Source of the DNA: Eledone cirrhosa
Lineage: Eukaryota
DNA length: 64,000 nt
Assembly: GCA_964016885.1 (NCBI GenBank)
Contig: OZ024763.1
Coordinates: 18,104,001 to 18,168,000, forward strand
Direction of reading: 5' to 3'
Part shown: positions 738-37,790 of the stretch, one piece after another
Numbering within the stretch: position 1 is the first letter of the stretch
Layout: every line of letters starts with the position of its first letter
Made by a program: the position numbers and the translations under genes
The notes under the pieces: model-generated
What the model saw: only the letters and a program-made list of their open reading frames with translations
Database searches by the model: none
Told to the model about the DNA's origin: nothing

Positions 738-1690
738 ATTTTACGTCTGCTTTTTCCCTGCTTGCAAGGGTGGGACGGGAACTGATTCTGGCTTGATTTC
801 TACAGCTGGATGCCCTTCCTAACACCAACCTCATTTACAGTGTGGACTGGGTGCTATTTGTCATGATACTTACACAACCACTTTACAGTGTGGACTGGGT
901 GTTTTTTGTCATTACACTTACACAACCACTTTACAGTGTGGACTGGGTGCTTTTTGTCATGACACTTACTCAACCACTTTACAGTGTGGACTGGGTGCTT
1001 TTTGTCATTACACTTACACAACCACTTTACAGTGTGGACTGGGTGCTTTTTGTCATGACACTTACTCAACCACTTTACAGTGTGGACTGGGTGCTTTTTG
1101 TCATGACACTTACTCAACCACTTTACAGTGTGGACTGGGTGCTTTTTGTCATGACACTTACTCAACCACTTTACAGTGTGGACTGGGTGCTTTTTGTCAT
1201 GACACCTACACAACCACTTTACAGTGTGGACTGGGTGCTTTTTGTCATGACACTTACTCAACCACTTTACAGTGTGGACTGGGTGCTTTTTGTCATGACA
1301 CCTACACAACCACTTTACAGTGTGGACTGGGTGCTTTTTGTCATGACACTTACTCAACCACTTTACAGTGTGGACTGGGTGCTTTTTGTCATGACACTTA
1401 CTCAACCACTTTACAGTGTGGACTGGGTGCTTTTTGTCATGACACTTACACAACCACTTTACAGTGTGGACTGGGTGCTTTTTGTCATGACACTTACACA
1501 ACCACTTTGCAGTGGGAGGGTGGGGTGGGGCATTCTGTATATATGCTTCAGCTTCAGCCTATACCCATTGGAAGTGGGGTCTTCTCTATAACTGACGCCA
1601 TAACATAACACCAGAGATCTAGTTCCTGTGTCATCAGCTTTGAGAGGTGCAATTTGGCAAGGCTTTTATCACCTCATCCCAAGTCTTCCA
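738..1690 (-). mobile_element. Composite retroelement: RTE C-terminal remnant + 48-bp VNTR + SINE/RTE 3' tail
   Basis: 738-835 is the reverse complement of the SINE 3' tail; 835-1512 is the 48-bp array; 1512-1690 is homologous to 27410-27590, which encodes an RTE C-terminus on the minus strand. Confidence 0.75.
835..1512. repeat. 48-bp tandem repeat, about 14 copies
   Basis: Unit TTTACAGTGTGGACTGGGTGCTTTTTGTCATGACACTTACACAACCAC; 16-aa periodicity in the ORF track. Confidence 0.95.
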
Positions 1691-1844
1691 TATATATATA
1701 TATATGTAAAATGTAAACAGATATATATATATAATATAACTAACAAAAGGTTTACATGCCAACACATGAGCAAGAATGAGGGGCTCATTCTACTGACATG
1801 GCTTAAAAGAGGCTGGCTGCATGATTGCAAACGAATCGAATATT

Positions 1845-2027
1845 ATTGGCAGTATCGTTAGAGGGTCGGACGCCAAGCATTGCAAGATGGAGTTACGGGC
1901 CTTTACGATCTGAGTTCAAATCCCACCGAGGTTAACTTTGCCTTTCATCCTTACGGGATCAATAAAATAAAGTACCAGTAATGCACTGGGATAATTGCTG
2001 GCCTGTGCCAAAAGTAGAAACAATTAT
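1845..2027 (+). mobile_element. SINE family B (tRNA-like head, GCCTTTCATCCTTACGGGGTCGATAAAATAAAGTACC body, (ATT)n tail)
   Basis: TGGCAGTATCG A-box-like motif, GAGTTCAAATCC B box; more than 15 full or partial copies in the window. Confidence 0.85.
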
Positions 2028-2048
2028 TAATATTCGAAAAACTCAGAT

Positions 2049-2089
<41 letters not shown>

Positions 2090-2145
2090 TCCAATTGTTT
2101 GTGTGACTAAGCTTGGTAGAGCTTATGCTCAGCACTGTGTTTTTG

Positions 2146-2205
2146 TTTATTATGCTCTGATGATTCCTGCCCAACGGTATGGATGAAACATTGTCAGCAA
2201 ATAAA
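2146..2205 (+). ncRNA. Type I hammerhead ribozyme motif
   Basis: TGCT-CTGATGA-ttcctgcccaacggtatggat-GAAAC-att-GTC-AGCA; stem I TGCT/AGCA, stem II TCC/GGA plus TGCC/GGTA. Confidence 0.75.
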
Positions 2206-2944
2206 AAAACTGTTTGAGTATGTAAGCGTTTTTTTAATTTCTTTTACATATAATGGCTCCGTTCTCGTACATTGAGCTTATACAATATTGTCAAAATACG
2301 ACACGGTACATATGTGTTTATACACATATTTCCCGTGCTCTACGTAAATATATATATATATATATCACATTTACGGTGCACACTGCAAATGTAGTTGGCA
2401 TTAGGAAGGGTGTACAGCCATAGAAACCAAGCCAGAATCAATTCAGTATGAAGACATGGTCATCAGATCTGACTTGTCGCACAACAGGACAACCTGTCTA
2501 AACCATGCTAGCTTGGAAAAATGGATGTTAAATGATGATGTGTATGTGTTTATGTCTCCTAACTTAGCAGCTCAAGGAAAGTGAAATTGATAAAATAAAT
2601 ACTATTAGTAGGGCGAGGAGAGGAGGGGGGTGTTGATATGATCAATCAACAACAGATTCCTTTTTAAGACTGTAGTGTCCCAGCATGGCCACAGTCTATT
2701 ATCTGAAACCTGTAACATGGAGGCACTAGAAGGAGAAATAAAACTGTCAGACTTAAAGTTACAATCTTCCTAAAGTTGGTTAGTGAAGTTCACAACAGCA
2801 GCAGCAGCAGAAGTAGATGATGGGAGGGGAGGTGAAGAAGAAGGAAGAAGGCAGAAAAAGGTGAAGAAAGAAGCAAGAAAGCAAAAGAGGAAGAAAGCAG
2901 AAGAAGAAATGGTTATTTTTTGTTTCTTTTGCAGAAATTCTTTT

Positions 2945-2965
2945 CACCTCACCACCACCAACATT

Positions 2966-2996
<31 letters not shown>

Positions 2997-5020
2997 CCAA
3001 TAGCACCACTACCACCACTACTACCACCACCACCATCACCACCATTACTACCACCACCACCATCATCATCATCACCAATAACACCACTACCTCCACCACT
3101 ACCACCACCACCATCATCATCATCACCAATAACACCACTACCACCACTACTACCACCACCACCATCACCACCATTACTACCACCACCACCATCATCATCA
3201 TCACCAATAACACCACTACCTCCACTACTACCACCACCATCATCATCACCAATAACACCACTACCTCCACTACTACCACCACCACCACCACTACCACTTT
3301 ACCACAATTGAAACCACTACCACCACCACCACCACTACCACTTTACCACAATTGAAACCACTACCACCACCACCAACCACTTTACCACAATTGAAACCAC
3401 CACCACCTACCACTTTACCACAATTGAAACCACTACCACCACCACCACCACTACCACTTTACCACAATTGAAACCACTACCACCACCACCACCACTACCA
3501 CTTTACCACAATTGAAACCACTACCACCACCACCACCACTACCACTTTACCACAATTGAAACCACTACCACCACCACCACCACTACCACTTTACCACAAT
3601 TGAAACCACTACCACCACCACCAACCACTTTACCACAATTGAAACCACCACCACCTACCACTTTACCACAATTGAAACCACTACCACCACCACCACCACC
3701 TACCACTTTACCACAATTGAAACCACTACCACCACCACCACCACTACCACTTTACCACAATTGAAACCACTACCACCACCACCACCACTACCACTTTACC
3801 ACAATTGAAACCACTACCACCACCACCAACCACTTTACCACAATTGAAACCACCACCACCTACCACTTTACCACAATTGAAACCACTACCACCACCACCA
3901 CCACCTACCACTTTACCACAATTGAAACCACTACCACTACCACCACTACCACCTTACCACCATTGAAACCACCACCACCACCACTACCACCTTACCATAA
4001 TTGAAACCACTACCACCACCACCACCACCATTACTACCACCATTGAAACCACCACCACTACCACCTTACCATAATTGAAACCACTACCACTACCACTTTA
4101 CCACAATTGAAACCACTACCACCACCACCACCACTACCACTTTACCACAATTGAAACCACTACCACCACCACCACTACCACTTTACCACAATTGAAACCA
4201 CCACCACCACCACTACCACTTTACCATAATTGAAACCACTACCACCACCACCACTACCACCTTACCACAATTGAAACCACTACCACCACCACCATTACTA
4301 CCACCACCACTACCACTTTACCACAATTGAAACCACTACCACCACCACCACCACCATTACTACCACCATTGAAACCACCACCACCACCACCACCATTACT
4401 ACCACCATTGAAACCACTACCACCACCACCACCACCACCACCACCTTACCACCATCACCACCATTACTACCACCACCTTACCACAATTGAAACCACTACC
4501 ACCACCACTACCACCACCACTACTTCACAGCTATTAACACCACCACTACGACCCACATTTTCCCATCCCCACTACCCCTGTTCCACCTTCACACCCACCG
4601 CCACCACTTCTTCCCAACACTACCACCCACACACCACCTCACCAGCCAGTTTCTTTCTGTCATCACTATCACACCCCACCACCGCCACCTTCACTACAAC
4701 CACTGCCATTTGTAGCCCCTTGCCACCACCACCACCCACCATCACCCCTACCAATTTCACTACCCCCCCACAACTACCACCATCAATACCCCCACCACCA
4801 CCACCACCACCAACAACAATACTACACCATCATCGCCCTCCCCACCACCACCACCACCAACAACAATACTACACCATCGCCCTCCCCACCTCCACCATCA
4901 CCACCACTAACAACAATACTACCCCCACCATCACTGCTCCCCCCTCGCCTCCACCACTACTTCCCCCATCATCACTGTCTTCCTCCTCACCACCACCACT
5001 ACCACCACACTATCCCCCCA
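2945..5020. repeat. (ACC/ATC)n low-complexity tract containing a CCACAATTGAAACCACTACC-based minisatellite (about 3290-4500)
   Basis: Direct reading of the repeats. Confidence 0.9.
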
Positions 5021-5049
5021 CCACATATAGCCAGACAGACAGATAGCTA

Positions 5050-5117
5050 TCTACCCGTCTCTCTCTCTCTCTCCCTATACATATATATATATATGATTCT
5101 CTCTCACTATCTGTCCG

Positions 5118-5162
<45 letters not shown>

Positions 5163-5185
5163 GATTCTCTCTCACTATCTGTCCG

Positions 5186-5232
<47 letters not shown>

Positions 5233-5254
5233 GATTCTCTCTCACTATCTGTCC

Positions 5255-5328
<74 letters not shown>

Positions 5329-5351
5329 GATTCTCTCTCACTATCTGTCCG

Positions 5352-5388
<37 letters not shown>

Positions 5389-5411
5389 GATTCTCTCTCA
5401 CTATCTGTCCG

Positions 5412-5450
<39 letters not shown>
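5050..5450. repeat. Compound tandem repeat: GATTCTCTCTCACTATCTGTCCGT-(CT)n-(AT)n, about 6 units
   Basis: Constant core separated by variable-length microsatellites. Confidence 0.9.
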
Positions 5451-5466
5451 GACCCTCCCAAAGTAT

Positions 5467-5498
<32 letters not shown>

Positions 5499-5831
5499 GA
5501 ACAAAAGATGGTTAAAGGAGTTCCATGTATTTTATTATGCGCATTTCAAATACATGGAACTCCTTTAACCATCTTTTGTTCTTATATATTATGTATACTC
5601 CAGTCCCACAAACTGTAGAGTGCTTCTTATCCGATATCTGCATTGCTTTATTGTACTACAATAAAACTCACCTCCTACATATATATATATATATATAAAG
5701 TGGAAGTTGTATTTAATTTGTTGGAAATCCGACAAACATAAATGTTTATAACTGATTTAGAGCACTCAATAAGTCACTGGAGTAACTTAATGATATTAAA
5801 TAAATGGAAACTATATTTATAAAACCATATT

Positions 5832-5896
5832 TATTTTATTATCTATATTTCAAGGGTAACCAAGACAACATTGGTACGCTTTCATCAGATAAAATA
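5832..5896 (-). ncRNA. Type I hammerhead ribozyme motif
   Basis: Minus strand TATTTTAT-CTGATGA-aagcgtacca...tggttaccctt-GAAA-tataga-TA-ATAAAATA; perfect 8-bp stem I. Confidence 0.75.
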
Positions 5897-5974
5897 CAAA
5901 GTTTGTTTTATAAATAGAGACGTACCCATGAAAATCATACCTTATCGGTTGGAAATTCACTGGATAGTGAAAAT

Positions 5975-6198
5975 GTATGACCCCGACGGCAGAGCTCAAG
6001 CCGTTTCGACGGCTATTTCTGGACTAAAATAGAATTTTACCACGCTAAAATTTTTTATTTTAGTCCAGAAAAAGCCGTCGAAACGGCTTGAGCTCTGCCG
6101 TCGGGGTCATACTTTCTCCTATTACCCACTCTACTACCCTAAGTATTGAGTACTCTGGTGCGTTATGGTCCATCTGGTTCCTTATAACACTTCCTTCG

Positions 6199-6200
<2 letters not shown>
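5975..6200. mobile_element. Short (TA)n-embedded interspersed element 'P1' with fold-back end (putative Penelope-like terminus)
   Basis: GACCCCGACGGCAGAGCTCAAGCCGTTTCGACGGC and its reverse complement; further copies near 8885, 9973, 10172, 30735, 37820 and 43645. Confidence 0.6.
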
Positions 6201-6239
<39 letters not shown>

Positions 6240-6512
6240 ACCCTTGCAAGCAGGGAAAAGCGGACGTAAAATGATGATGATGATGATGATGATGATGATA
6301 TATATATATATATATATATGCAAAAGTTCTATTTAAATTGTTGGGATACAACAAGCAAATATTTTTATAACTGATATAAAGGACTCAATGAAATAAATAT
6401 GGTTTTATAAATATAGTTTCCATTTGTTAATATCGTATATATATATATTTATGTCCGTCTGTCGCTATATATATATCTCTCTTTCTCTCTCTGTTTCACT
6501 ATAATATTAATA

Positions 6513-7294: not shown

Positions 7295-7343
<49 letters not shown>

Positions 7344-9571: not shown

Positions 9572-10487
9572 GAGGGGATGATAGACAGAGTGAAAGAGAG
9601 AGGGTGTTATAGATAGATAGAGAGAGAGGGGAGGGGGAGACGATATCTCTATATGAATGGATAAATAAATAAAATACTATAAACAAATAAAATAAAAATT
9701 CGGCAGACGGCAACAAACGAAGGAAGCAAGCAACAGCTTTTGCCAAAAACTTTCTTTACCATTTCACGTTGGTTTTTTCATGTAAGTACACAACTACATC
9801 TAACTTTATTATGTATATATAATATATATTATATGTATAATATATATTATATATATAGAATAATATATATTATATGTATAATATATATTATATATATAGA
9901 ATATATATTGTAGGTGCGTTATGAGTGTATTTTGTGTTTACCGTAATATATACAGATATATATATATATATATAGGAACGAGTAGGACCCCGACGGCTGA
10001 GCTCAAGCCGTTTCGACTCAGAATTAGCCGTCGAAACGGCTTGAGCTCAGCCGTCGGGGTCCTACTCGTTCCTATTACCCACTCTAATACCCTAAGTATT
10101 GAGTACTCTGGTGTGTTATGGTCCACCTGGTTCCTTACCACATTTCCTTCGTTATATATATATATATATATAACGAAGGAGTTGTGGTAAGGAACCAGAT
10201 GGACCATAGCGCACCAGAGTACTCAATACCTTAGGGTAGTAGAGTGGGTAATAGGAGAAAGTATGACCCCGACGGCAGAGCTCAAGCCGTTTCGACGGCT
10301 ATTTCTGAACTCTTATATATATATATATATATATATATAAGTTATTCTGGGTTGAAACGGAGGTAACCACAGTAAGTAAGGTACTCAATACATAGCAGAG
10401 TATAAAAGTTTTAATATAGAAGAGCTTCTACAGGACTAGATGATTTCTCACGAATGAAACAGTTCTAGTCCTGTAGAAGCTCTCCTC

Positions 10488-11689: not shown

Positions 11690-12700
11690 TTTACAGTGTG
11701 GACTGGGTGCTGTTTCTTGTGACACCTACACAACCACTTTACAGTGTGGACTGGGTGCTGTTTCTTGTGACACCTACACAACCACTTTACAGTGTGGACT
11801 GGGTGCTGTTTCTTGTGACACCTACACAACCACTTTACAGTGTGGACTGGGTGCTGTTTCTTGTGACACCTACACAACCACTTTATTGTGGACTGGGTGC
11901 TGTTTCTTGTGACACCTACACAACCACTTTACAGTGTGGACTGGGTGCTGTTTCTTGTGACACCTACACAACCACTTTACAGTGTGGACTGGGTGCTGTT
12001 TCTTGTGACACACACCTACACAACCACTTTACAGTGTGGACTGGGTGCTGTTTCTTGTGACACCTACACAACCACTTTACAGTGTGGACTGGGTGCTGTT
12101 TCTTGTGACACCTACACAACCACTTTACAGTGTGGACTGGGTGCTGTTTCTTGTGACACCTACACAACCACTACAGTGTGGACTGGGTGCTGTTTCTTGT
12201 GACACCTACACAACCACTTTACAGTGTGGACTGGGTGCTGTTTCTTGTGACACCTACACAACCACTTTACAGTGTGGACTGGGTGCTGTTTCTTGTGACA
12301 CCTACACAACCACTTTAGTGTGGACTGGGTGCTGTTTCTTGTGACACCTACACAACCACTTTACAGTGTGGACTGGGTGCTGTTTCTTGTGACACCTACA
12401 CAACCACTTTACAGTGTGGACTGGGTGCTGTTTCTTGTGACACAGACCTACACAACCACTTTACAGTGTGGACTGGGTGCTGTTTCTTGTGACACCTACA
12501 CAACCACTTTACAGTGTGGACTGAGTGCTGTTTGTTGTGACACACACCTACACAACCACTTTACAGTGTGGACTAGGTGCTTTTTGTCGTGACACCTACA
12601 CAACCACTTTACAGTGTGAACTGGGTGCTTTTTTTACCATGGCTCCGACACAACCACTTTACAGTGTGGACTGGGTCTTTTTGTCGTGACACCTACACGA
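11690..12700. repeat. 48-bp tandem repeat, about 21 copies, same family as 835-1512
   Basis: Unit TTTACAGTGTGGACTGGGTGCTGTTTCTTGTGACACCTACACAACCAC with array-specific substitutions. Confidence 0.95.
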
Positions 12701-12840
12701 CCTTATTTATTTAGGACTGGATGTTGTGGTACTAACATAACTTTACATTGAAAGGGGTGGTGTTGGTGGGTGTAGGGGTAGTGGGATGGGGGTGTGGTTT
12801 GGTTAGGAGGTGCCTACTGACTGTAGGTTTCACTTTGTAC

Positions 12841-12932
12841 TTAGGCAAGGTGGGTCTTCTGTATTACTGCGTAGCGCCAAAGATCTCGGTCCAGTGACAT
12901 TGTCTTGGAGAGGTGAAAGTGTGTAAGGTTGG
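12841..12932 (-). mobile_element. RTE-clade LINE C-terminal coding remnant
   Basis: Translates HFHLSKTMSLDRDLWRYAVIQKTHLA*, homologous to 27450-27590 and similar to the end of the RTE ORF at 35161. Confidence 0.65.
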
Positions 12933-15387: not shown

Positions 15388-15721
15388 GGAGGCACATGGC
15401 TTAGTGGTTAGAGCATTGGCCTTGCAATCGAAAGGTTGTGAGTTCAATTCTCAGACCGGGTGATGTGTTGTTTCCTTGAGCAAGACACTTTATTTCAAAT
15501 TGCTCCAGTTTACTCAGCTGTAGAAATGAGATGAAAGGGACTGGGGTCCCTATCATTCCACTGCAAAGTGGTCATGGAGGTGCCACGGCAAAAAAGCACC
15601 CAGCACTCACTGTAATGAGGTTGGTGTTAGGAAGGGCATCCAACTGTAGAAATCAAGCCAGAATCAGTTCCCGTCCCACCCTTGCAAGCAGGGAAAAGCA
15701 GACGTAAAATGATGATGATGA
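15388..15721 (+). mobile_element. SINE family A, full length (tRNA head, CORE-like domain, RTE-type tail, (ATG)n)
   Basis: TGGCTTAGTGG A box, GAGTTCAATTC B box, CCTTGAGCAAGACACTT CORE-like segment, tail shared with the LINE at 35161-35612. Confidence 0.9.
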
Positions 15722-16043
15722 TATATATATACATACATGCAAACAGCCATACAGACACATGCACATATATATATGTATAGAAATATATGTATACATGGTG
15801 ATGATGATGACACATACATATACACACACATACATATATACATACATACACGCACACATATATGCATATATATATATATATATACACATACATACATACA
15901 TATACACATACATACACATATACATACATACACACACGTACAAATAGACACCCATATATACATACATACACACACGCACATGTATATATATACATACATA
16001 CACGCACATGTATATATACATACACGCACATGTATATATACAT

Positions 16044-16587: not shown

Positions 16588-17449
16588 TTAACCCCTTAGT
16601 ATTTAAACCGGCCATATCCGGCCAGAATTATCTCACCTCTTTCTGATCAAACTGGCTGTAATTGGTCACTCATACTGATGTTATGGTATTATTCTCAAGT
16701 AAAGCCTTTACAGTGAAAATACAGTAGTATTTTAGAGTAATGTAAATGCTAATGGGTTAATATGAGATCAGTTCTAGCAACCTTGGTCTTCCTCTACTGC
16801 AGCTTGCTTCCACCAGGATCTCTTACCACTTCTTCAGGTTCTGTTTAACCCTTTCATAACTGGCCAGAATTCTCTCACCCATTTCTGGCCAGACATTCCT
16901 TGGTCTTCCTCTACTGCAGCTTGCTTCTACCAGGATTTCTTGTCACTTCTTCAGGTTCTGTTTAACCCTTTCATAACTGGCCAGACATTCCTTGGTCTTC
17001 CTCTACTGCAGCTTGCTTCCACCAGGATCTCTTACCACTTCTTCAGGTTTTGTTTAACCCTTTCATAACTGGCCAGAATTCTCTCACCCATTTCTGGCCA
17101 GACATTCCTTGGTCTTCCTCTACTGCAGCTTGCTTCTACCAGGATTTCTTGTCACTTCTTCAGGTTCTGTTTAACCCTTTCATAACTGGCCAGACATTCC
17201 TTGGTCTTCCTCTACTGCAGCTTGCTTCCACCAGGGTCTCTTGCCACTTCTTCAGGTTCTGTTTAAATCAGCCATAATTGGCCAGAATTCTCTCACCTCT
17301 TTCTGTTTAAACCGGCTGGAACTGGTCACTCATACCAACGTTCTCAAAATAAATAATACCAAAATCTTAGATTCAATATTATGTGAAGTAAAGTGCTTAC
17401 CATGAAAATCTGACAGTATGTATAGAGTAATGTAAATGCTAAAGGGTTA
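16588..17449. mobile_element. piggyBac-like MITE fragments with tandemly duplicated RTE/MITE junction
   Basis: TTAACCC...GGGTTAA ends; repeated CCTTGGTCTTCCTCTACTGCAGCTTGCTTC blocks at 16770-17290. Confidence 0.55.
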
Positions 17450-18270
17450 ATGAGATCAGTTCTAGCAACCTTGGCCTTCCTCTACTGCAACTTCCTTCCA
17501 CCGACACACTTCTTCACCCAGCCAGCATTCATCATCTGTATGTATCATATGTCCATACCTGCAGTCTTCTCTCCTGCACATTATACTACCCTACATCTGA
17601 TTCCTGCACATTATACTACTCTACATCTGATTCCTGCACATCTACCCTACATCTGATTCCTGCACATCTACTCTACATCTGATTCCTGCACATCTACCCT
17701 ACATCTGATTCCTGCACATCTACCCTACATCTGATTCCGGCACATCTACTCTACATCTGATTCCTGCACATCTACCCTACATCTGATTCCTGCACATCTA
17801 CCCTACATCTGATTCCTGCACATCTACCCTACATCTGATTCCTGCACATCTACCCTACATCTGATTCCTGCACATCTACCTACATCTGATTCCTGCACAT
17901 CTACCCTACATCTGATTCCTCTTATAACCAGTTTTTCTCACAACTCATCCATGCCAAATACCTGCCATTTCTGGCCAGACATTCCTTGGTCTTCCTCTAC
18001 TGCAGCTTCCTTCCACCAGGATCTCTTACCACTTCTTTAGGTTCTGTTTAATATGAGATCAACTCTAACAACCTTGGTCTTCCTTTACTGCAGCTTCCTT
18101 CCACTGACATCTCTTGCTACTTCTTCAGGTTCTCTTGCCACTTCTTCACCCAGCAATCATCATCCATGCATATCACATGTCGATACCAGTGCAGTCTTCT
18201 TCTCCTGCACACCACGTGTGATTCCTCTTATAGCTAGTTTTTTTCTCTCAGCTCATTCATGCTGAGCAAT
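17450..18270 (-). mobile_element. Degenerate RTE LINE 3' fragments interrupted by a 26-bp minisatellite
   Basis: Minus strand resembles the RGIRC..QERRL.WYGH...SRGRPR motif of the ORF at 35161. Confidence 0.7.
17570..17920. repeat. 26-bp minisatellite, about 13 copies
   Basis: Unit ACATCTGATTCCTGCACATCTACCCT. Confidence 0.9.
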
Positions 18271-19056: not shown

Positions 19057-19643
19057 TGTAGTGACCTACATTCCGCGGGCTCACATACATTCTCTGTGCG
19101 TGATTTGGCTCAGCTCAGCCAATCAGCACCAGTAGAAGAGGATGTATCCCTACGCGCCCTGAGGGAGAAATTCCCCGCGAAGATTTGAAGAATCTTCCTC
19201 TCGCACCCGGAACTTCGAACCAGCAACACGTACAACATGTGACGGTGAGATTTTGCACCTTAACCCGCCGGCTTTCCGGCGCAATGGCACATTCCCTTTT
19301 GTAACCTCATTTTATGTGTAACTTCAACCATACAAGTTAACCAACATTATTTGTGGATTGGCAGTATCGGTAGAGGGTCGGACGCCATGCTTTCCAGCAT
19401 AGTTACGTCCCTTTACGATCTGAGTTCAAATCCCGCCGAGGTTGACTTTGCCTTTCATCCTTACGGGGTCGATAAAATAAAGTACCAGTAATGCACTGGG
19501 TAATTGCTGGCCTTGTGCCTAAAGTAGAGACAATTATTTGTGCTACAACAAAAATAAACATACATTTCATCTCTAACTTCTGCTGTTGACATCATTATTG
19601 TGTTACTCGTGTCTCAATAACATTTATAATCCATGCTGCTAAA
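19057..19643 (+). mobile_element. Putative solo LTR
   Basis: Starts TGTAGTG, ends TGCTAAA (probably decayed TGCTACA), 4-bp TSD GATG splitting a SINE, CCAAT box, AATAAA near the 3' end, CpG-rich. Confidence 0.65.
19356..19532 (+). mobile_element. SINE family B nested in the solo LTR
   Basis: 10-bp TSD ATTATTTGTG on both sides. Confidence 0.85.
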
Positions 19644-20164
19644 GATGAAAGGCAAAGCTAACCTCGGCGGGATTTGAACTCGGTCCGTAAAGGGCCGTAA
19701 CTCTATGCTGAAAAGCATGGCGTCTGACCCTCTACCGATACTCTCAATCCACTGCCCTGTAATAATTGTTTCTACTTTGGGCACAAGGCCAGCAATTATC
19801 CCAGTGCATTACTGGTACGTTATTTTATCGGTCGGGCCCCGTAAGGATGAAAGGCAAAGCTAACCTCGGCGGGATTTGAACTCGGTCCGTAAAGGGCCGT
19901 AACTCTATGCTGAAAAGCATGGCGTCTGACCCTCTACCGATACTCTCAATCCACTGCCCTGTAATAATTGTTTCTACTTTGGGCACAAGGCCAGCAATTA
20001 TCCCAGTGCATTACTGGTACTTTATTTTATCGGTCGGGGCCCCGTAAGGATGAAAGGCAAAGCTAAACTCGGCGGGATTTGAACTCAGTCCGCAAAGGGC
20101 CGTAACTCTATGCCGCAAAGCATCGCGTCCGACCCTCTCTCCCGATAATGCTAATCCACCGCCC

Positions 20165-20345
20165 TGTAAGAATGTCCCACAGAAACACATCCTTCTTAGA
20201 CAGACAATATCCAACGCGGGAGGACTACCCAGATAGAGGTCTCCATTTGCGACTCTCTGTCGCCAAGATATGTTGGAAGAGTGTCCCAGCAGTCTTGTGT
20301 AACATCCATTTAGTCTTTTTTCAAGGGTTTTATTAAGCATTTATT
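20165..20345 (-). mobile_element. Non-LTR retrotransposon (RTE-like) ORF fragment
   Basis: TLEKRLNGCYTRLL...NISWRQRVANGDLY is typical of the post-RT region; related fragments at 21120-21355, 60860-61020 and 61735-61920 (RRLRLAGH). Confidence 0.7.
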
Positions 20346-21100: not shown

Positions 21101-21391
21101 CATCTATCTATCTAAGGCGGGTAAATTTCCCGAGATCCATGGACGAGTTCTCTCCAGCGGTCTCTGTCCCTCATTATCGCTGCCATGTCCTGCATCTCCA
21201 ACAGACCAGTGTCTGTCCTTAGGGCATCAACATATGTTAACCTTGGTCTTCCTCTTCTAGTGTGTCAATGTAGGGGCTCCCAAAGGAGCACTGAGTGCAA
21301 TGTCAACTCTGGATGTCGGTGAGCATGTCCAGCCAACCTCAGTCTCCTCTGTGTCACATATATAGGTACATACATATATACATATATATAT

Positions 21392-24505: not shown

Positions 24506-25695
24506 ATACAAACATGGTGTTTAATATCAGCTACCAGTGTTTAATATCATCTCCAACACCCACCACCATCTTTAGTACCACTAGCACCATGTACTCTACC
24601 ACCACCACCACCACCACACCACCACCACCTTGGTACACAGACGCAAGGGCGTTGCCTCACCACCACTAAAAAACCATCTCAGTCACACACACACACACCC
24701 TGCTCGAATCTCCCTCACCACCACCACCACCACCACACCACCACCATTACCTCCCCCAATACCAAGCTCAACCTCACCACCACCACCACCACACCACCAC
24801 CATTACCTCCCTACAATACCAAGCTCAACCTCACCACCACCACACCACCACCACACCACCACCACCACCACACCACCACCATTACCTCCCCCAATACCAA
24901 GCTCAACCTCACCACCACCACCACCACCACACCACCACCAACCATTAATACTAACCTCAGCCTCACCACCACCACCACCATTCACTACCCCTATACCAAA
25001 CATCACCACCACCACCACCACCACCAACCATTAATACTAACTTCACCACCATTACCTACCCATATACCCTACCCCACTACCACCGACCCTTGCTAGTAGT
25101 GAGAAAGGGCTTTAAATGATGATGGTGATGATGATGATTATGGTTGTGATGGTGGCGTTTATGATTTATGATGGTCGTGATGATGATTATGGTGGTGGGG
25201 GTGATGATGATTATGATAGTGATGATGATGATTATGGTTGTGATGGTGGCGTTTATGATTTATGATGGTCGTGGTGATGATTGTGGTGGTGGTGGTGATG
25301 ATGATTATGATAGTGATGATGATGATTATGGTTGTGATGGTGGCGTTTATGATTTATGATTGTGGTGGTGATGATTTATGATTGTGGTGGTGATGATGAT
25401 TATGATAGTGATGATGGTGATCATGATGGTGATGATGATGACTTATATAATATTTCTCTTCAACCATCCATCATCATTTAATCCTCATAACACCGCACCC
25501 TCCCCCACCGCAGTCTATGTAACACATCCATGTAATGCTCCATTCATTTGGTTCTTTGGGGTAAAGAAATATGATAATAATCATAATTAACCCTTTATTT
25601 AACAACTCTAGCCAAAACTGGTTCTGGTTCTGGTTCCACGAGTCACCCATTTTAAATGTTTCCTATTTAAATTAACCCTATAGTTAATTCTACTC

Positions 25696-27592
25696 TCATC
25701 ATCATCATCATCATCACCGTTTTATGTCCGTTATTCCGCGCTAGCATGGGTTAGATGGGTTGTCCTGTTGTGGGCAATGCCAGGTCAGGTGACCATGTCT
25801 TGCTCATACAGAACTGATTTTGGTTTAATTTCTACAGCTGGATGCTTTTCCTAACACCAACCTTATTTACAGTTGGCACTGGGTACTTTTTGTCATGACA
25901 CCTACATAACCATTTTACAGTATGGACTGGGTGCTCTTTGTCATGACACCTACACAACCACTTTACAGTTGGGACTGGATGCTTTTTGTCGTGACACCTA
26001 CATGATCACTTTACAGTGTGGACTGGGTGCTTTTTGTCATGACACCTACACAACCACTTTACAGTTGGGACTGGATGCTTTTTGTCGTGACACCTACATG
26101 ATCACTTTACAGTGTGGACTGGGTGCTTTTTGTCATGACACCTACACAACCACTTTACAGTTGGGACTGGATGCTTTTTGTCGTGACACCTACATGATCA
26201 CTTTACAGTGTGGACTGGGTGCTTTTTGTCATGACACCTACACAACCACTTTACAGTTGGGACTGGATGCTTTTTGTCATGACACTTACACAACCACTTT
26301 ACAGTATGGACTGGGTGCTTTTTGTCATGACACTTACACAACCACTTTACAGTATGGACTGGGTGCTTTTTGTCATGACACCTACACAACCACTTTACAG
26401 TATGGACTGGGTGCTTTTTGTCATGACACTTACACAACCACTTTACAGTATGGACTGGGTGCTCTTTGTCGTGACACCTACACAACCACTTTACAGTTGG
26501 GACTGGATGCTTTTTGTCGTGACACCTACATGATCACTTTACAGTGTGGATTGGGTGCTTTTTGTCGTGACACTTACACAACCACTTTACAGTGTGGACT
26601 GGATGTTTTTTGTCGTGACACCTACATGATCACTTTACAGTGTGGATTGGGTGCTTTTTGTCGTGACACCTACACAACCACTTTACAGTTGGGACTGGAT
26701 GCTTTTTGTCATGACACCTACATGATCACTTTACAGTTGGGACTGGATGCTTTTTGTCGTGACACCTACATGATCACTTTACAGTGTGGATTGGGTGCTT
26801 TTTGTCGTGATACCTACATGATCACTTTACAGTATGGACTGGGTGCTTTTTGTCATGACACCTACACAACCACTTTACAGTTGGGACTGGATGCTTTTTG
26901 TCGTGACACCTACATGATCACTTTACAGTGTGGACTGGGTGCTTTTTGTCGTGACACCTACACAACCACTTTACAGTGTGGACTGGATGTTTTTTGTCGT
27001 GACACCTACATGATCACTTTACAGTGTGGATTGGGTGCTTTTTGTCGTGACACCTACATGATCACTTTACAGTGTGGATTGGGTGCTTTTTGTCGTGACA
27101 CCTACACAACCACTTTACAGTTGGGACTGGATGCTTTTTGTCGTGACACCTACATGATCACTTTACAGTGTGGATTGGGTGCTTTTTGTCGTGATACCTA
27201 CATGATCACTTTACAGTATGGACTGGGTGCTTTTTGTCATGACACCTACACAACCACTTTACAGTTGGGACTGGATGCTTTTTGTCATGACACCTACATG
27301 ATCACTTTACAGTGTGGACTGGGTGCTTTTTGTCATGACACCTACACAACCACTTTACAGTGTGGACTGGATGTTTTTTGTCGTGACACCTACATGATCA
27401 CTTTACAGTGGGAGAAGGTGAGGGCATACTGTCTATACACTTCAGCTTCGGCTTGTACCCGTGGGAAGTAGGGTCTTCCGTATTACTGTGTAACGCCAGA
27501 GGTCTCGCTCCTGTGTCATCGCCTTTGAGAGGTGCAATTGGGCAAGGTCAGCTTTTATCACCTCATCCCAGGTCTTCTTGGGTCTCCCCACT
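25696..27592 (-). mobile_element. Composite retroelement: RTE C-terminus + about 32 x 48-bp VNTR + alternative RTE-type tail with (ATG)n
   Basis: Minus strand GRPKKTWDEVIKADLAQLHLSKAMTQERDLWRYTVIRKTLLPTGTSRS*, then the array (25866-27410), then AGGAAAAGCATCCAGCTGTAG...CTAACCCATGCTAGC...(GAT)n. Confidence 0.8.
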
Positions 27593-27800
27593 CCATGGCT
27601 TCCATCGACTTTTAATGCTCCAATATTTTCATGGTAAAAGCTTTATCTCACATAATTATACCTTCACATAAGTTTGAACGGCTGGTTATGGCCAGTTTGA
27701 GCGGCTGGTTATAGCTAGTTTGAACAGAAAGAGAATTCTGGCTGGATTTAAATGCTAAAGGGTTAAAATCTTCCAACATAATTTTATATAAGAACCTTAC

Positions 27801-28161: not shown

Positions 28162-28529
28162 GTGAGTGAGAGTGGGACGCATGGTCCAAGTGAATGGGCT
28201 TGCTGGTGTTTGGAACATAACTTAACAAAGGTTCTTACATAAAATTATAATTGTTTCTACTTTTGGCACAAGGCCAGCAATTACTCCAATGCATTACTGG
28301 TACTTTATTTTATCGACCCTGTAAAGATGAAAGGCAAAGTTAAACCTCGGCGGGATTTGAACTCAGAACATAAAGGGCCATAACTCTATGCTGCAAAGCA
28401 TAGTGTCTTACATGAAATTATAATGAAAGGTTTTTAGATAAATATAAAGCTCTTTGAATTGATCAACTTTATAACATAAAACCAAAGGTGGTTTTGGGCA
28501 GTTTGATTTCAAAAGGTTAAAACAGTTTT

Positions 28530-29832
28530 AAATCATAGAACCAGGGGTGGTATCAGGTGGTTTGGTATGAAATGGGTGAAAACAGTTTTGTATCATAGAA
28601 CCAGAGGTGGTTTCACATGGTTTGGTATCATAGAACCAGAGGTGGCTTCACATGGTTTGGTATCATAGAACCAGAGGTGGTTTCACATGGTTTGGTATCA
28701 TAGAACCAGAGGTGGTTTCACATGCTTTGGTAACAAACAGTTTTGTATCATAGAACCAGAGGTGGTTTCACATGGTTTGGTATCATAGAACCAGAGGTGG
28801 TTTCACATGCTTTGGTAACAAACAGTTTTGTATCATAGAACCAGAGGTGGTTTCACATGCTTTGGTAACAAACAGTTTTGTATCATAGAACCAGAGGTGG
28901 TTTCACATGGTTTGGTATCATAGAACCAGAGGTGGTTTCACATGCTTTGGTAACAAACAGTTTTGTATCATAGAACCAGAAGTGGTTTCACATGGTTTGG
29001 TATCATAGAACCAGAGGTGGTTTCATATGGTTTGGTATCAAACAGTTTTATATCATAGAACCAGAGGTAGTTTCACATGGTTTGGTATCAAACAGTTTTA
29101 TATCATAGAACCAGAGGTAGTTTCACATGGTTTGGTATCAAACATTTTGATATCATAGAACCAGAGGTGGTTTCATATGGTTTGGTATCAACCATTTTGA
29201 TATCATAGAACCAGAGGTGGTTTCATATGGTTTGGTATCATAGAACCAGAGGTGGTTTCATATGGTTTGGTATCAACCATTTTGATATCATAGAACCAGA
29301 GGTGGTTTCATATGGTTTGGTATCATAGAACCAGAGGTGGTTTCATATGGTTTGGTATCAAACAGTTTTATATCATAGAACCACAGGTGGTTTCACATGG
29401 TTTGGTATCATAGAACCAGAGGTGGTTTCAGCAGTTTTGTATCATAGAACTAGGGGTGGTTTTATGCTGGTTTGATATATTAGAACCAGGGGTGGTTTCG
29501 GGAGTTTCGTATATTAGAACCAGGGGTGGTTTCGGGAGTTTGGTATCATAGAACTATGGGTGATTTTAGGTGGTTTGGTATATTAGAACCAGGGGTGGTT
29601 TCGGGAGTTTGGTATATTAGAACCAGGGGTGGTTTCGGGAGTTTGGTATATTAGAACCAGGGGTGGTTTCGGGAGTTTGGTATATTAGAACCAGGGGTGG
29701 TTTCGGGAGTTTGGTATATTAGAATCAGGGGTGGTTTCGGGAGTTTGGTATATTAGAACCAGGGGTGGTTTCGGGAGTTTGGTATCATAGAACTATGGGT
29801 GATTTTAGGTGGTTTGGTATCAAAAGGATTAA
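28530..29832. repeat. 35/50-bp minisatellite
   Basis: Unit TATCATAGAACCAGAGGTGGTTTCACATGGTTTGG and variants; the reverse complement matches the MITE subterminal sequence at 27815-27850. Confidence 0.9.
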
Positions 29833-30560: not shown

Positions 30561-30954
30561 ACAGAAAAAACAACATATAATGAGATTCAATGAAGATATA
30601 TATATTAGTTTTACACTTAATATTGAAGGAATAGTCTTAACGTTTTGGATGCTAGTCCTTCATCAGAATATAAAGTGAGAAATCAAAGAAGAAAGATAGA
30701 AGAGTTGATATATATATATATATATATATAATAAAGAAGGTGTAGTAAGATACCAGGTGGACCATAACGTACCAGAGTACTCGATACATAGGGTAGTAGA
30801 GTGGGTAATTGGAAAAGAGTCAGGAACCTTATGGCTGAGCTCCAGCCATTTCGACAGCTAGATCCGAACAGTTCCGATGTAGCTGCCAAAACAGCCGGAG
30901 CTCAGCTGTCGGGGTCCTGGCTCTTTTCCTATATATATATATATATTTTTTAGG

Positions 30955-31178: not shown

Positions 31179-31214
<36 letters not shown>

Positions 31215-31534: not shown

Positions 31535-31551
31535 ACATATATACAGTATAT

Positions 31552-32300: not shown

Positions 32301-33061
32301 AAAAGGAATAAATGAAAAAGCATATAAATGGATAAATATAATTATTTTATTTGAAAACCTTTTTCTGACTCATTAAATAAAAAACTACTTGGCAGAAGGT
32401 TAGACAGCTGAGAAAGATTTTGAAGTTCGTTGAAATTAATAATGACCCTTACGACCTTCCATACTTACTGTTGTCCTAGTTTGTTTAGTTCTTGTGACTG
32501 GTGCGTGTGTGTGTTAGATGTGTGTTTGTGTTCTTGGTGTGCGTGTGTGTTTTAGTGGTATGTGTGGGTAGGTGATAGTAATGTGTGTGTGTTTTAGGGG
32601 TGTGTGTGTTAGGAATGTGTGTGTGTATATGTATTAATGGTGTGTGTATGTATATGTATTAATAGTGTGTGCGTGTTAGTGAAGTGCATGTTTGTGTGTG
32701 TGTGTGTTAATGAGTTCTCATGGGAAAGAAAACATTCTCTAGGATGTGTGTGTACATGTGTTCTTGCACATGTATGTGTATGTGCACCTGTGTTTATGTA
32801 TGTGTGTGCACTTGTGTGTATGTGTGCTTGTGCATGTATGTGTGTATATGTACATGTGTATTTATGTGTGTGTGCACATGTATTTATGTATGTGTGCATG
32901 TGTATTTATGTGTGTGTGTGTGTGTGCATGTGTATTTATGTATGTGTGTGTGTGTGCATGTGTATTTATGTATGTGTGCATGTGTATTTATGTGTGTATG
33001 TGTGTGTGCTTGTGTATTTATGTGTGTTATATTTGATGGGTGTGTATATATATATATATAT

Positions 33062-33400
33062 GGAGGCACATGGCTTAGTGGTTAGAGCATTGGCCTTGCA
33101 ATCGAAAGGTTGTGAGTTCAATTCTCAGACCGGGTGATGTGTTGTTTCCTTGAGCAAGGCACTTTATTTCACATTGCTCCAGTTTACTCAGCTGTAGAAA
33201 TGAGATGATAGGGACTGGGGTCCCTATCATTCCACTGCAAAGTTGTCGTGGAGGCGCCACGGCAAAAAAGCACCCAGCACTCACTGTAAATGAGGTTGGT
33301 GTTAGGAAGGGCATCCAGCTGTAGAAATCAACCCAGAATCAGTTCCCATCCTACCTTTGCAAGCAGGGAAAAGTGGACGTAAAATGATGATGATGATGAT
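33062..33400 (+). mobile_element. SINE family A, full length
   Basis: Near-identical to 15388-15721. Confidence 0.9.
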
Positions 33401-33461
33401 TATATATATATATACACACACATCCATTCACATCAAATACATGTTTCTTTGAGGTTGGTTG

Positions 33462-33528
33462 AATGATATACACATCTTCTGATGAGAATCCAATAAGATC
33501 TGAAAATCGATTAAAGGTGTTTATCATT
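33462..33528 (+). ncRNA. Minimal type I hammerhead ribozyme motif
   Basis: ACATCTT-CTGATGA-gaatccaataagatct-GAAA-ATCGAT-TA-AAGGTGT; palindromic stem III, stem I extended by AATGATA/TATCATT. Confidence 0.75.
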
Positions 33529-33529
33529 A

Positions 33530-33797
33530 TTAGGGTCGGACGCCATGCTTTCCAGCATAGTTACGTCCCTTTACAATCTGAGTTCAAATCCCGCCGAGGT
33601 TGACTTTGCCTTTCATCCTTACGGGGTCGATAAAATAAAGTACCAGTAATACACTGGGGTAATTGCTGGCCTTGTGCCAAAAGTAGAAACAATTATTTTA
33701 TAAACTTTGCCTTTCATCCTTACGGGGTCGATAAAATAAAGTACCAGTAATGCACTGGGTAATTGCTGGCCTTGTGCCTAAAGTAGAAACAATTATT
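33530..33797 (+). mobile_element. Two 5'-truncated SINE family B copies
   Basis: Family B body and tail. Confidence 0.85.
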
Positions 33798-34311
33798 TCA
33801 ATTAACAGGGAAATTAGAATGTTCTGGCATGTTTATATATCTACATATTAGATATGTGTGTATATATGATATATATACACACACATTGGTGCAGTCTTGG
33901 TTACACACTCTGTATGAATACCGATGTAACTTTATTGTACAATTTGGCTGCTAGTGCACTTTTTACTATATATATATATATATATACATACATCATCATC
34001 ATCATCATCATCACCGTTTTACATCTGTTCTTCCACGCTAGCATGGGTTAGACGGGTTGTCCTGTTGTGCGCAGTGTCCGGTTGGCTGACCTTTTCTTGC
34101 TCATATGGGAACTGATTCTGGCTTGATTTCTACAGCTGGATGCCCTTCCTAACACCAACCTCATATAAATCATCATCATCATCTTCGTTTAACGTCCATC
34201 TTCCACGCTAGCATGGGTTAGACGGAAGTTGTCCCACTTGAGGCAAGGCTGGTCGGGTGACCGTGTCTCGCTCATATAGGACTATCTGGCAGGTTTTCTA
34301 CGGCTGGATGC

Positions 34312-34369
<58 letters not shown>

Positions 34370-34729
34370 ATATACACACACGCGTGTGTATGTGTGTGTC
34401 TTGGGCGTGTATGTATCTGTGGGTGGTAGGTATATATATGTGTGTGTGTGTAGATGGGTGTGGGTGTGTAGTGTGTGTATGTGTGGGTGTGTAGAGTGTG
34501 TATATGTATGTGTGTATATGTGTGGTGTGTATATCTATGTATGGGAGGCGGGGAGATGTATATATATATATATATATGTGTGGGAGGTAGGTATATATAT
34601 ATATATATGTGTGTGTGTGTATGTATGTGGGTGTATTTATGTATGTATGTGTGGGTCTGTATGTATATATATTTATATATATGTAGATAAATCTACCAAA
34701 ATGAAGAACTCAATAAATATCATTATTTC

Positions 34730-34880
34730 TGATGCTTTCCAGCATAGTTACGTCCCTTTATGATCTGAGTTCAAATCCCGCCGAGGTTCACTTTGCCTAT
34801 CATCCTTACGGGGTCGATAAAATAAAGTACCAGTAATGCACTGGGTAATTGCTGGCCTTGTGCCTAAAGTAGAAACAATT
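34730..34880 (+). mobile_element. 5'-truncated SINE family B with TSD ATTATTTCTGA
   Basis: Direct repeat on both sides of the insertion. Confidence 0.8.
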
Positions 34881-35007
34881 ATTTCTGAAGACAGCATCTA
34901 TATGTGTAGGCATGTATATTCCTTCTGATAGTTTGTAAAAATGTTTACATAGATCTATAGGATATACATACCAACACTAACATATATCCTAGAAACGATA
35001 GTAAAAT
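34881..35007 (+). ncRNA. Type I hammerhead ribozyme motif with about 100-nt stem II
   Basis: ATTT-CTGAAGA...GAAAC-gata-GTA-AAAT; ATATGT/ACATAT and GGCATGTATATTCCT/AGGATATACATACC pair within stem II. Confidence 0.6.
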
Positions 35008-35115
35008 GATGAATTTTTTAATATAAGGAACTGTTTCTTTGTTTATTCATTATTTTTATTAATTTATATTTATATATATATATATATATATAATATATAT
35101 ATATATAATATATAT

Positions 35116-35146
<31 letters not shown>

Positions 35147-35147
<1 letters not shown>

Positions 35148-35612
35148 GTATGATGCCTGTGTGAGGAGCGCGATGCTGCATGGTAGTGAGACATGGGCAG
35201 CTACCGCAGAAGATATGCGACGGCTGGAGAGAAATGAGGCAAGCATGCTCCGTTGGATGTGCAGTGTAAATGTGCGTGAACGACCCAGCATAAATGTGTT
35301 GAGAGAGAAACTGTGTCTGAGAGGGATAGAATGTAGTGTACGGGAGGGAAGACTGAGGTGGTATGGCCATGTGATGCGCATGGAGGATGACCGATGGGTG
35401 AAGAAGTGCCAGGAAATGCCAGTTGAAGGAAGACGTGGTAGAGGTAGACCACGAAAAACATGGGTGGAGGTGGTGAGAACAGACCTCAGATCATTGAAGC
35501 TCACGGTGGAGATGACGAAGGACCGTGATGAGTGGAGAGATGCTGTGCTGAATAAGACCCGTCCCACCCTTGCAAGCAGGGAAGAGCGGACGTAAAATGA
35601 TGATGATGATGA
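35147..35612 (+). mobile_element. 5'-truncated RTE-clade LINE (intact C-terminal ORF portion and (ATG)n tail)
   Basis: MLHGSETW...LERNEASMLRWMC...RLRWYGHVMR...RGRGRPRKTW is the RTE post-RT region. Confidence 0.92.
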
Positions 35613-35684
35613 TATATATATACTAACACCAGCTACAATTGCCAGATGTCTGCAATAAAACATTCTATGGAACATCTCATCCCA

Positions 35685-37131
35685 TTGTTGTTGCTGGTGT
35701 TGTTGGTGTTGGTGGTGGTGTTGTTGGTGTTGTTGTTGCTGGTATTGGTGGTGGTGGTGTTGGTGTTGTTGCTGGTATTGGTGTTGGTGTTGTTGTTGCT
35801 GGTATTGGTGGTGGTGGTGTTGGTGTTGTTGTTGCTGGTATTGGTGGTGGTGTTGTTGTTGCTGGTGTTGGTGTTGTTGGTGTTGTTGTTGCTGGTATTG
35901 GTGGTGGTGGTGTTGGTGTTGTTGTTGCTGGTATTGGTGGTGGTGGTGTTGGTGTTGTTGTTGCTGGTATTGGTGTTGGTGTTGTTGTTGCTGGTATTGG
36001 TGTTGGTGTTGTTGGTGTTGTTGTTGCTGGTATTGGTGGTGGTGGTGTTGGTGTTGTTGTTGCTGGTATTGGTGGTGGTGGTGTTGGTGTTGTTGTTGCT
36101 GGTATTGGTGTTGGTGTTGTTGTTGCTGGTATTGGTGTTGGTGTTGTTGTTGCTGGTATTGGTGTTGGTGTTGTTGTTGCTGGTATTGGTGGTGGTGGTG
36201 TTGGTGTTGTTGTTGCTGGTATTGGTGTTGGTGTTGTTGTTGCTGGTATTGGTGTTGGTGTTGTTGTTGCTGGTATTGGTGTTGGTGTTGTTGTTGCTGG
36301 TATTGGTGTTGGTGTTGTTGTTGCTGGTATTGGTGTTGGTGTTGCTGTTGTGTTGTTGGTGTTGCTGTTGTGTTGTTGTTGCTGTTGTTGTTGTTGTAGC
36401 TGTTGTTGATTGTGTGTGAAATGGGAGCCAGGGAACTATTTAATTAGAGGCCATTGTATATATACCATCATCATCACCATCATCACCATTATCACTGCCA
36501 TCACCATTATCACCACCATCACCACCATCACCACCATCATCACCATCACCACCATCACCACCACCATCATCACCATTATCACTGCCATCACCATTATCAC
36601 CACCATCATCATCACCATTATCACTGCCATCACCATTATCACCATTACCATCACCACCATCACCACCACCATCATCACCACCACCACCATCATCACCACC
36701 ACCATCATCACCACCACCACCACCATCATCACTATCACCACCACCACCACCACCACCTCCACCACCACCACCATCACTGTTTAATGTCTATTTTTCCATG
36801 CTTGCAGTAACATTTGTTCATTGAGGGAGCTGGCTTGTTTTATATATTTAGTTGTTGTTGTTGTTGATTGGTGTTGTTGATTGGTGGTGGTGTTGGTGCT
36901 GGTGTTGTTGTTGCTGCTGCTGCTGCTGTTGTTGGTGTTGTTGTTGTTGTTGTTGCTGCTGATTGGTGTTGTTGTTGCTGCTGATTGGTGTTGTTGTTGT
37001 TGCTGATTGGTGTTGTTGTTGTTGCTGATTGGTGTTGGTGTTGTTGTTGTTTACTTATTTAGGTTGAAAATGCAAAGAGTATTTAGAGGTCACTGTATGG
37101 TGGGGGGGGGGGGGTCATCATTGTTGTGGCG

Positions 37132-37162
<31 letters not shown>

Positions 37163-37335
37163 GGGTGATGGTTGTGGTGGCGGCAGTAGTGACCATTGAG
37201 GTGACGGAAATAGCCATAGTAGTGGTGGCAGTGATGGTGATACTGGTGGTGGTGGTAGTGGTAGTAGTGATCGTGGTGATACTGGTGGAGGCTGAAGTAG
37301 CTGTAGTAGTAGTAGTAGTATTGGTGATGGTGGCA
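35685..37335. repeat. Triplet low-complexity tracts (GTT/GGT, ATC/ACC, GTA)
   Basis: Direct reading. Confidence 0.9.
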
Positions 37336-37440
37336 GTGGGGAGAGAGAGAATCTGCATGGGTGTTTATTGTAGAAACTGAAGACTTCCAATGTACTTTTA
37401 TGATAATATCTGATGGGAAAGGTTCCCTGCCAACTTTGAT

Positions 37441-37488
<48 letters not shown>

Positions 37489-37492
<4 letters not shown>

Positions 37493-37790
37493 TCATCATC
37501 ATCATCATCATCATCACCGTTTTACGTCCGTTCTTCCATGCTAGCATGGGTTAGACGGGTTGTCCTGTTGTGGGCAGTGTCTGGTTGGCTGACCATGCCT
37601 TGCTCATACAGGAACTGATTTGGCTTGATTTCTACAGCTGGATGCCCTTCCTAACACCAACCTCATTTACAGTGAGTGCTGGGTGCTTTTTTGCCGTGGC
37701 GCCTACACGACCACTTTACAGTGTGGGCTGGGTGCTTTTTTGCCGTGTCACCTCCACGACCACCTTGCGGTGGGGGGTGTGGGGGCATTA
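37489..37790 (-). mobile_element. Low-copy version (2 x 48-bp unit) of the composite VNTR element
   Basis: Same tail as 25696-25866, two 48-bp units, then the G-rich GGGGCAT junction also seen at 1512-1533. Confidence 0.7.

Follow-up and report, generated by a model that had tools for sequence, protein, structure and literature searches.

Probable 5′-truncated RTE retrotransposon copies with an expandable 48-bp repeat in the 3′ untranslated region in Eledone cirrhosa

Introduction

A 64,000-nucleotide stretch of the Eledone cirrhosa genome (contig OZ024763.1, positions 18,104,001 to 18,168,000; hereafter the window) contains four loci at which a 48-bp unit is tandemly arranged next to sequence related to the RTE clade of long interspersed nuclear elements (LINEs). 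These loci are probably 5′-truncated copies of an RTE LINE carrying an expandable 48-bp unit in its 3′ untranslated region (UTR), the array having grown after insertion.

The closest described relatives are RTE-clade LINEs with a PHD finger (for example P0152 and P0158, and P0003, P0151 and P0389 from Octopus), which contain the same series of C-terminal motifs. According to PMC2887409, such LINEs also share a 3′ microsatellite tail and frequent copies comprising the 3′ part only, and 3′ fragments of RTE elements are known to spread repeat families. The element described here differs from these relatives in possessing a 3′ UTR with a 48-bp minisatellite and a conserved module, whereas the canonical open reading frames (ORFs) end on a terminal hairpin. 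RTE-2_OV of Octopus vulgaris, compared here by description only, is described in PMC9115989 with a C2H2 finger and a long 3′ UTR (about 600 nt) made up largely of "microsatellite". PMC13282606 gives 13 recently active RTE families of O. vulgaris without structures.

A second group comprises the RTE-tailed tRNA/CORE short interspersed nuclear elements (SINEs), such as octopus OR1/OR2 and the Ceph-SINEs, which by description resemble a SINE family of the window, SINE A, in combining a tRNA-like head with a 3′ part shared with RTE. Octopus CORE-SINEs are cited in passages of PMC4758252 and PMC4824008, and tail exchange between such SINEs and LINEs is described in PMC5786205. The motif of the conserved module was not found in the text of its supplement.

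Minisatellites derived from transposable elements (TEs) are represented by Alu, B1, the Ogre 3′ UTR arrays and the CR1 3′ UTR satellite. As in the present case, a unit bounded by short direct repeats, considered the starting point of a minisatellite (PMC6947457, in part), expands, and TE 3′ UTRs seed tandem repeats; none of the cases in the passages concerned is an RTE LINE of a cephalopod (PMC6947457, PMC9659126). The SVA/LAVA/PVA/FVA composites contain an internal variable number of tandem repeats (VNTR) region with units of 30-50 bp and variable copy number, a feature shared by the element here (48 bp, 2-32 copies). SVA-type composites are further described, in part of PMC4432496, as having a fixed 5′ domain, joining unrelated elements and using L1 in trans. 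The present element contains no fixed 5′ domain and is RTE-type at both ends, being SVA-like only in its internal VNTR. No paper describing the 48-bp repeat was found, as judged by titles and abstract openings, and Repbase, Dfam, the Zenodo library or supplements may hold it.

Results

Four array loci and their relatives in the window

The first-pass annotation listed four minus-strand loci with about 14, 21, 32 and 2 units, which agrees with the 14.3, 21.0, 32.2 and 2.0 copies given by Tandem Repeats Finder (TRF; Table 1). The 26-nt core of the unit has 71 matches in the window versus 0.00 expected from 100 shuffles, and the unit has a GC content of about 48% by hand count and is not GC-rich. 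An RTE coding remnant lies 5′ of each of the three large arrays (loci 1, 2 and 3), as had been noticed, but the motif given as DLWRY reads DLWCY at locus 1, where the remnant contains a 4-bp deletion and a 9-bp insertion, and the remnant of locus 3 reaches 27620 rather than 27592. The locus 2 remnant is only 77% identical to that of locus 3, and its spacer is longer and different. The annotated RTE-type tail, in two versions at three loci, was recovered: the short version belongs to locus 1 and the long version to loci 3 and 4, while locus 2 stops within the array and is tail-less. Loci 3 and 4 and the shorter members have (GAT)n or (ATG)n as their 3′ microsatellite, which is degenerate at locus 1. 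Locus 4, with its two units, likely represents the unexpanded state.

The four copies are thus present, but four shorter members had been missed (Table 1). The minus-strand orientation applies to the four chosen loci and not to four of the five SINE A copies or the copy at 2376, which are on the plus strand. Strand bias was therefore rejected as a feature, as it arises from the selection of loci.

Table 1. Coordinates of the element copies, their parts and related features, as positions in the window
Feature	Coordinates	Strand	Description	Method
Locus 1	738..1690	-	5′-truncated copy comprising an RTE remnant (two indels), the spacer, 14 units and the short tail
Locus 1 remnant	1549..1690	-	RTE remnant
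Locus 1 array	826..1514	-	14.3 copies of the 48-bp unit, with a mean pairwise identity of 0.97	TRF
Locus 2	11690..12932	-	More distant RTE remnant, longer spacer, 21 units, no tail
Locus 2 remnant	12844..12932	-	RTE remnant
Locus 2 array	11690..12702	-	48-bp array, 21.0 copies	TRF
Locus 3	25696..27620	-	RTE remnant, spacer, 32 units, long tail with (GAT)n end
Locus 3 remnant	27442..27620	-	Open 58 C-terminal codons and stop, RTE-clade ORF
Locus 3 array	25866..27410	-	48-bp array, 32.2 copies, variant mosaic with higher-order duplications	TRF
Locus 4	37490..37790	-	Begins within spacer; 2 CpG-rich units, long tail
Locus 4 array	37666..37763	-	2.0 copies, period 49	TRF
Shorter member	61049..61235	-	5′ end within last unit, long tail
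Shorter member	33993..34167	-	5′ end just past last unit, long tail
Shorter member	34169..34315	-	More diverged, 5′ end within conserved module
Shorter member	2376..2554	+	Old diverged long-tail copy
SINE A	15388..15722	+	tRNA-like head, body, one unit, short tail
SINE A	33063..33397	+	Copy
SINE A	38290..38590	-	Copy, 5′-clipped
SINE A	44665..44934	+	Copy, 5′-truncated
SINE A	61400..61725	+	Copy
Sister RTE	35152..35612	+	3′ fragment without VNTR; open 147 codons, inside (TA)n
Terminal-inverted-repeat repeat	27621..27766	-	Unrelated, adjoins locus 3 5′ end

5′ ends and upstream continuation

Seven related copies have seven distinct 5′ ends, while the common 3′ end is kept in six of the seven. 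In locus 3 coordinates, the 5′ ends of the four loci fall at 27620, ~27578, ~27550 and ~27437, and those of three further copies lie in the last unit or the tail. Four public sequencing runs (X1, X4, X5 and X12) were compared with window positions 27340-27760, and loose ends behind 27611/27612/27620 were found in 65 contigs of X1, 9 contigs of X5 and 4,499, 16,323 and 37,665 reads of X12. Hand translation of the loose-end letters in the frame of the remnant gave nine residues in register with P0003, five of them identical and three conservatively changed. As the reading frame continues upstream in other genomic copies, the break at 27620 marks a truncation within an ORF that was originally longer. 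Contigs of X4 over spacer and remnant (records 12, 13 and 16) extend 87, 148 and 661 letters on the ORF side. One contig record of X4 (record 9), bearing a second species label, contains unit, spacer and remnant joined together. The proposal of an SVA-like composite is thus not supported, in view both of the lack of a common 5′ domain and of the in-frame upstream continuation. Some public contigs with a joint from 27576 to 27535 loop back inside the coding remnant, which suggests tandem repeats of the coding part in other copies.

Identity of the coding remnant

A search with the 61-amino acid (aa) remnant retrieved 160 proteins at E<=0.001, and the top BLASTP match among the proteins compared is P0003, a predicted protein of Octopus vulgaris (54% over 48 aa). 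When compared with 120 long reverse transcriptase (RT) proteins, which had been retrieved with one of the remnant's relatives as query, the remnant matched 116 at E<1e-3, a median of 12 residues short of their C-termini; many of the 120 are single ORFs of ~1,050 aa for which endonuclease, RT and PHD domains are annotated. The remnant therefore likely belongs to the RTE clade, a label based on the single-ORF layout and the motif series, and the LINE is likely of octopus type. No Pfam family matched the remnant, a word-based protein search with the 61-aa query found no relatives among 19 candidates, and the related-locus scan gave a single distant match (L011, 39%) and none in viral contigs. Counted by codon position, the differences between the remnants of loci 1 and 3 are even (7/6/6), as against 6/4/11 in the case of locus 2 and 17/12/28 in that of the sister RTE.

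Other coding fragments were observed beside these. Decayed fragments of the same RTE clade, with codons of the RT and PHD regions, lie at 59636-60034 (+) and 63300-63527 (+), and C-terminal remnants of a different LINE family at 21127-21369 (-), 60887-61018 (-) and 61737-61859 (-). An RTE-type protein recorded for a Herbaspirillum metagenome-assembled genome (P0334, 66% identity to P0015) is likely host contamination.

Organization of the 3′ region

The sister RTE fragment (77% identical to P0283) has an ORF which passes directly into the terminal hairpin and (ATG)n, like the canonical relatives P0283 and P0153. Locus 3 agrees with the sister RTE as far as the K-T codons, directly behind which lies a junction common to both. 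Beyond it the two diverge, locus 3 continuing with spacer, units, conserved module and terminal segment; the hairpin is found again where the long tail ends. Most simply, the 3′ UTR would have gained its length from an additional segment located behind the ORF and before the hairpin. Even with two units this UTR is about 290 bp or more, and is not very short as in lepidopteran RTEs; such shortness is a typical trait but no defining one, given the ~600 nt of RTE-2_OV. Public Octopus RTE 3′ ends have comparably long UTRs with a different tandem unit. P0271 (449 aa, containing RT and PHD), P0015 and P0003, all known as proteins alone, end without the canonical motif, which suggests that non-canonical endings occur on coding elements.

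As the 5′ part and the terminal hairpin are both RTE-type, the pieces do not appear to be drawn from unrelated elements, contrary to the SVA-like assembly proposed at first. The short tail has ~55 bp fewer than the long tail, and its last ~50 bp equal the sister RTE terminus; the family of the sister RTE is thus the likely donor of the short tail, and tail exchange likely gave rise to locus 1 and SINE A.

The terminal hairpin is predicted, with folding not above shuffles (z -1.06 and 0.11). Four of five stretches fold no better than shuffles, and the z of -4.2 for the locus 1 dimer was set aside, as it is explained by a 10-bp palindrome in the unit and shuffles are a poor control for tandem repeats. 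An Rfam search of 37400-38700 gave nothing near the gathering score, and hence no known ribozyme.

The module motif has 11 copies in the window and occurs at 10 metagenome loci (L001-L010) of animal-like DNA without an RTE ORF, while it had no matches in the genome contigs and viral contigs searched. It also occurs in RTE-related elements of other animals. The unit core was found in none of 11 loci including this metagenome set, and the 48-bp unit pattern had no matches in metagenome and viral contigs.

SINE A

As the first-pass annotation had noticed, the unit occurs once in the body of SINE A, and each of the five copies contains exactly one. SINE A joins the element at the unit start, and everything after this point, the last ~170 bp, is common to both; the overlap is the usual common tail of a SINE and a LINE. 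Four of the SINE A tails match that of locus 1 at 92-97% identity, while the units of locus 1 are of the array type. Box A/B-like sequences were read by eye in the SINE A head, in which ARAGORN calls no tRNA, and the body is presumably CORE-like.

Growth of the arrays

The comparison of units covers those of 40-60 bp, minus the final unit of each of loci 2-4. Mean unit identity is 0.97, 0.96 and 0.90 within the arrays of loci 1, 2 and 3, 0.85-0.89 between arrays and 0.76-0.77 to the SINE unit. The nearest neighbour lies solely in the same array for 54 of the 64 scored units, so that the reported homogenization of each array holds in part; loci 1 and 3 have one identical unit in common, and locus 3 contains 14 variants among 31 scored units. 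The locus 3 variant at 27398 is present in 15 of these 31 units, yet 95% of the contig depth in X1 and 94% of that in X4 is without it. The variant of locus 2 (16 of 20 units) and that of locus 1 (7 of 14) each occur in none of the other arrays. As variants that are rare elsewhere fill half of one array, expansion likely took place after insertion. Seven identical units of locus 3 differ from the common unit by six changes, a distance comparable with that between the locus 3 tail and other long tails (13-16%), and amplification therefore likely followed the ageing of founder units in place. The long arrays thus look to have expanded where they stand rather than to have been carried in. The unit is flanked by a short imperfect direct repeat, as read directly.

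Tandem growth is general in the window: of 10 other arrays used as queries, 7 have matches among dispersed repeats elsewhere in it, and these involve RTE coding pieces, a 202-bp dispersed repeat and a SINE head. The array with the SINE head (46455-58872, 86-bp unit, 144 copies, 97% matches) corresponds to the head and the start of the body of a SINE directly next to it at 58860-59010 (88% identical), representing a 12-kb satellite grown from a SINE head. A compound 92/117/209-bp array at 16781-17305 and 17961-18246 contains RTE C-terminal coding sequence (-) and mixes in pieces of a terminal-inverted-repeat repeat. Arrays at 19640-20173 (202 bp x2.6) and 38705-38882 (58 bp x3.1) derive from a second, SINE-like family that is dispersed over the window in numerous copies, and those at 63534-64000 (72 bp), 42768-43224 (48 bp, unrelated to the main unit) and 28515-29820 (35/50/85 bp) from small repeats whose ends look like TTAA-flanked inverted repeats, which we take to be piggyBac-like.

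Insertion sites

(TA)n flanks occur on both sides of loci 1 and 4 and on the 5′ side of locus 2. Among eight elements tested for target-site duplications, six have only (TA)n or (CA)n matches and two have none. The terminal-inverted-repeat repeat adjoining the 5′ end of locus 3 usually has a different continuation, and its far end may resume at 25670-25696, 3′ of locus 3; this resumption is in the right place but weak, as 69, 87 and 275 of 2,000 shuffles score as well. Another dispersed repeat family with (TA)n borders and 83-95% identical copies is located at 6056-6231, 10019-10170, 10155-10332, 30708-30860, 37810-37990 and 43664-43834, one copy lying directly upstream of locus 4.

Discussion

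The part of the first-pass annotation that described a mobile, RTE-related sequence with an internal expandable repeat, leaving minisatellites at dispersed sites, is supported. For the LINE subfamily in question, the layout that reads best is ORF end, spacer, 48-bp unit(s), conserved module and terminal hairpin/(ATG)n. Reverse transcription would start at the 3′ tail and stop early, usually just inside the ORF, and the short imperfect direct repeat around the unit would permit a first duplication. At least two units would form a repeat long enough for slippage or unequal exchange, while the single-unit SINE A copies would stay single, SINE A carrying the last ~170 bp as a LINE-type tail. The process is likely a variant of the well-known birth of minisatellites from TEs, and no new class of mobile element is shown.

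Several observations weigh against this reading. No full-length ORF joined to the VNTR was seen in the window or in the public reads and contigs, which do not amount to a whole genome, so a non-autonomous master would also account for the copies. The upstream continuation is readable for 30 letters only, and its reads start at 27536 or above, and hence are without a link to the spacer or VNTR. The longer extensions of the X4 contigs are available as lengths only. In the public runs the view is confined to 24 loose-end rows out of 1,345 and 24 pieces out of 44,146; the restriction site-associated DNA (RAD) reads end at one place and so give no copy count, and depth in general does not equate to copy number. 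The spacer is covered at a much lower depth than the remnant or the unit, and most remnant-like and unit-like sequences may therefore be without this spacer. Furthermore, no unique target-site duplication was found among the eight elements tested in the window, and the unit identical between loci 1 and 3 would allow a multi-unit master or exchange between arrays.

An unlikely, though serious, alternative is a non-autonomous master consisting of remnant, VNTR and tail, which RTE proteins would mobilize in trans and whose true 5′ end would lie upstream of the reach of any copy here. This corresponds to the SVA-like model of the first-pass annotation; the master may have originated from an internally deleted RTE, or from a SINE or RNA polymerase II transcript with a captured RTE 3′ fragment. 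The remnants of all three long arrays are only 90-180 bp, which could hint at such a short master, and those of loci 1 and 3 differ by codon position 7/6/6, without the third-position excess that would demonstrate coding constraint on the immediate master. Modules are also mixed across copies (two tails, two unit types), and PMC5786205 documents both tail exchange and non-autonomous RTE derivatives of bipartite structure. Such a master is, however, difficult to reconcile with the lack of a common 5′ end, the in-frame upstream continuation, the 58 open codons of locus 3 and the related ORFs with non-canonical endings that are open through the RT domain (P0271, 449 aa, a protein only). In its boldest form, which we consider doubtful, the element would be an RTE-driven non-autonomous VNTR composite, an invertebrate counterpart of SVA whose coding stub, unit type and tail are exchanged with those of a SINE and of a sister LINE; it would act as a genome-wide factory of 48-bp hypervariable minisatellites in octopods.

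It is rather improbable that the LINE is the same but the long arrays pre-existed in their sources and were copied as long VNTRs from separate master lineages. The three arrays have a unit type of their own that is found neither at locus 4 nor in SINE A, loci 1 and 3 have an identical unit, and SVA VNTRs have subfamily-specific units (PMC4432496, in part), all of which would fit copied-in arrays, but the dominant variant of locus 3 is rare in public contigs, the diagnostic variants are each confined to one array, and locus 3 combines an old tail with identical internal blocks. Chance juxtaposition, in which independent minisatellites or SINE fragments landed beside RTE scraps in (TA)n hot spots favoured in the window by RTE fragments and SINEs alike, is largely refuted by the shared junctions and thus very improbable, as order, orientation and a homologous spacer are repeated at three to four loci and the linkage is also found in contigs of two species labels.

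If the reading as 5′-truncated copies of an RTE LINE with arrays grown after insertion is true, the element would be a clear case of a LINE 3′ UTR serving as a dispersed minisatellite seed. It would contain a built-in contrast, as single-unit SINE copies stay single (five of five) whereas multi-unit LINE copies expand (three of four), which would make the threshold of minisatellite birth testable within one genome, and it would bear on repeat annotation, assembly and marker design in octopus.

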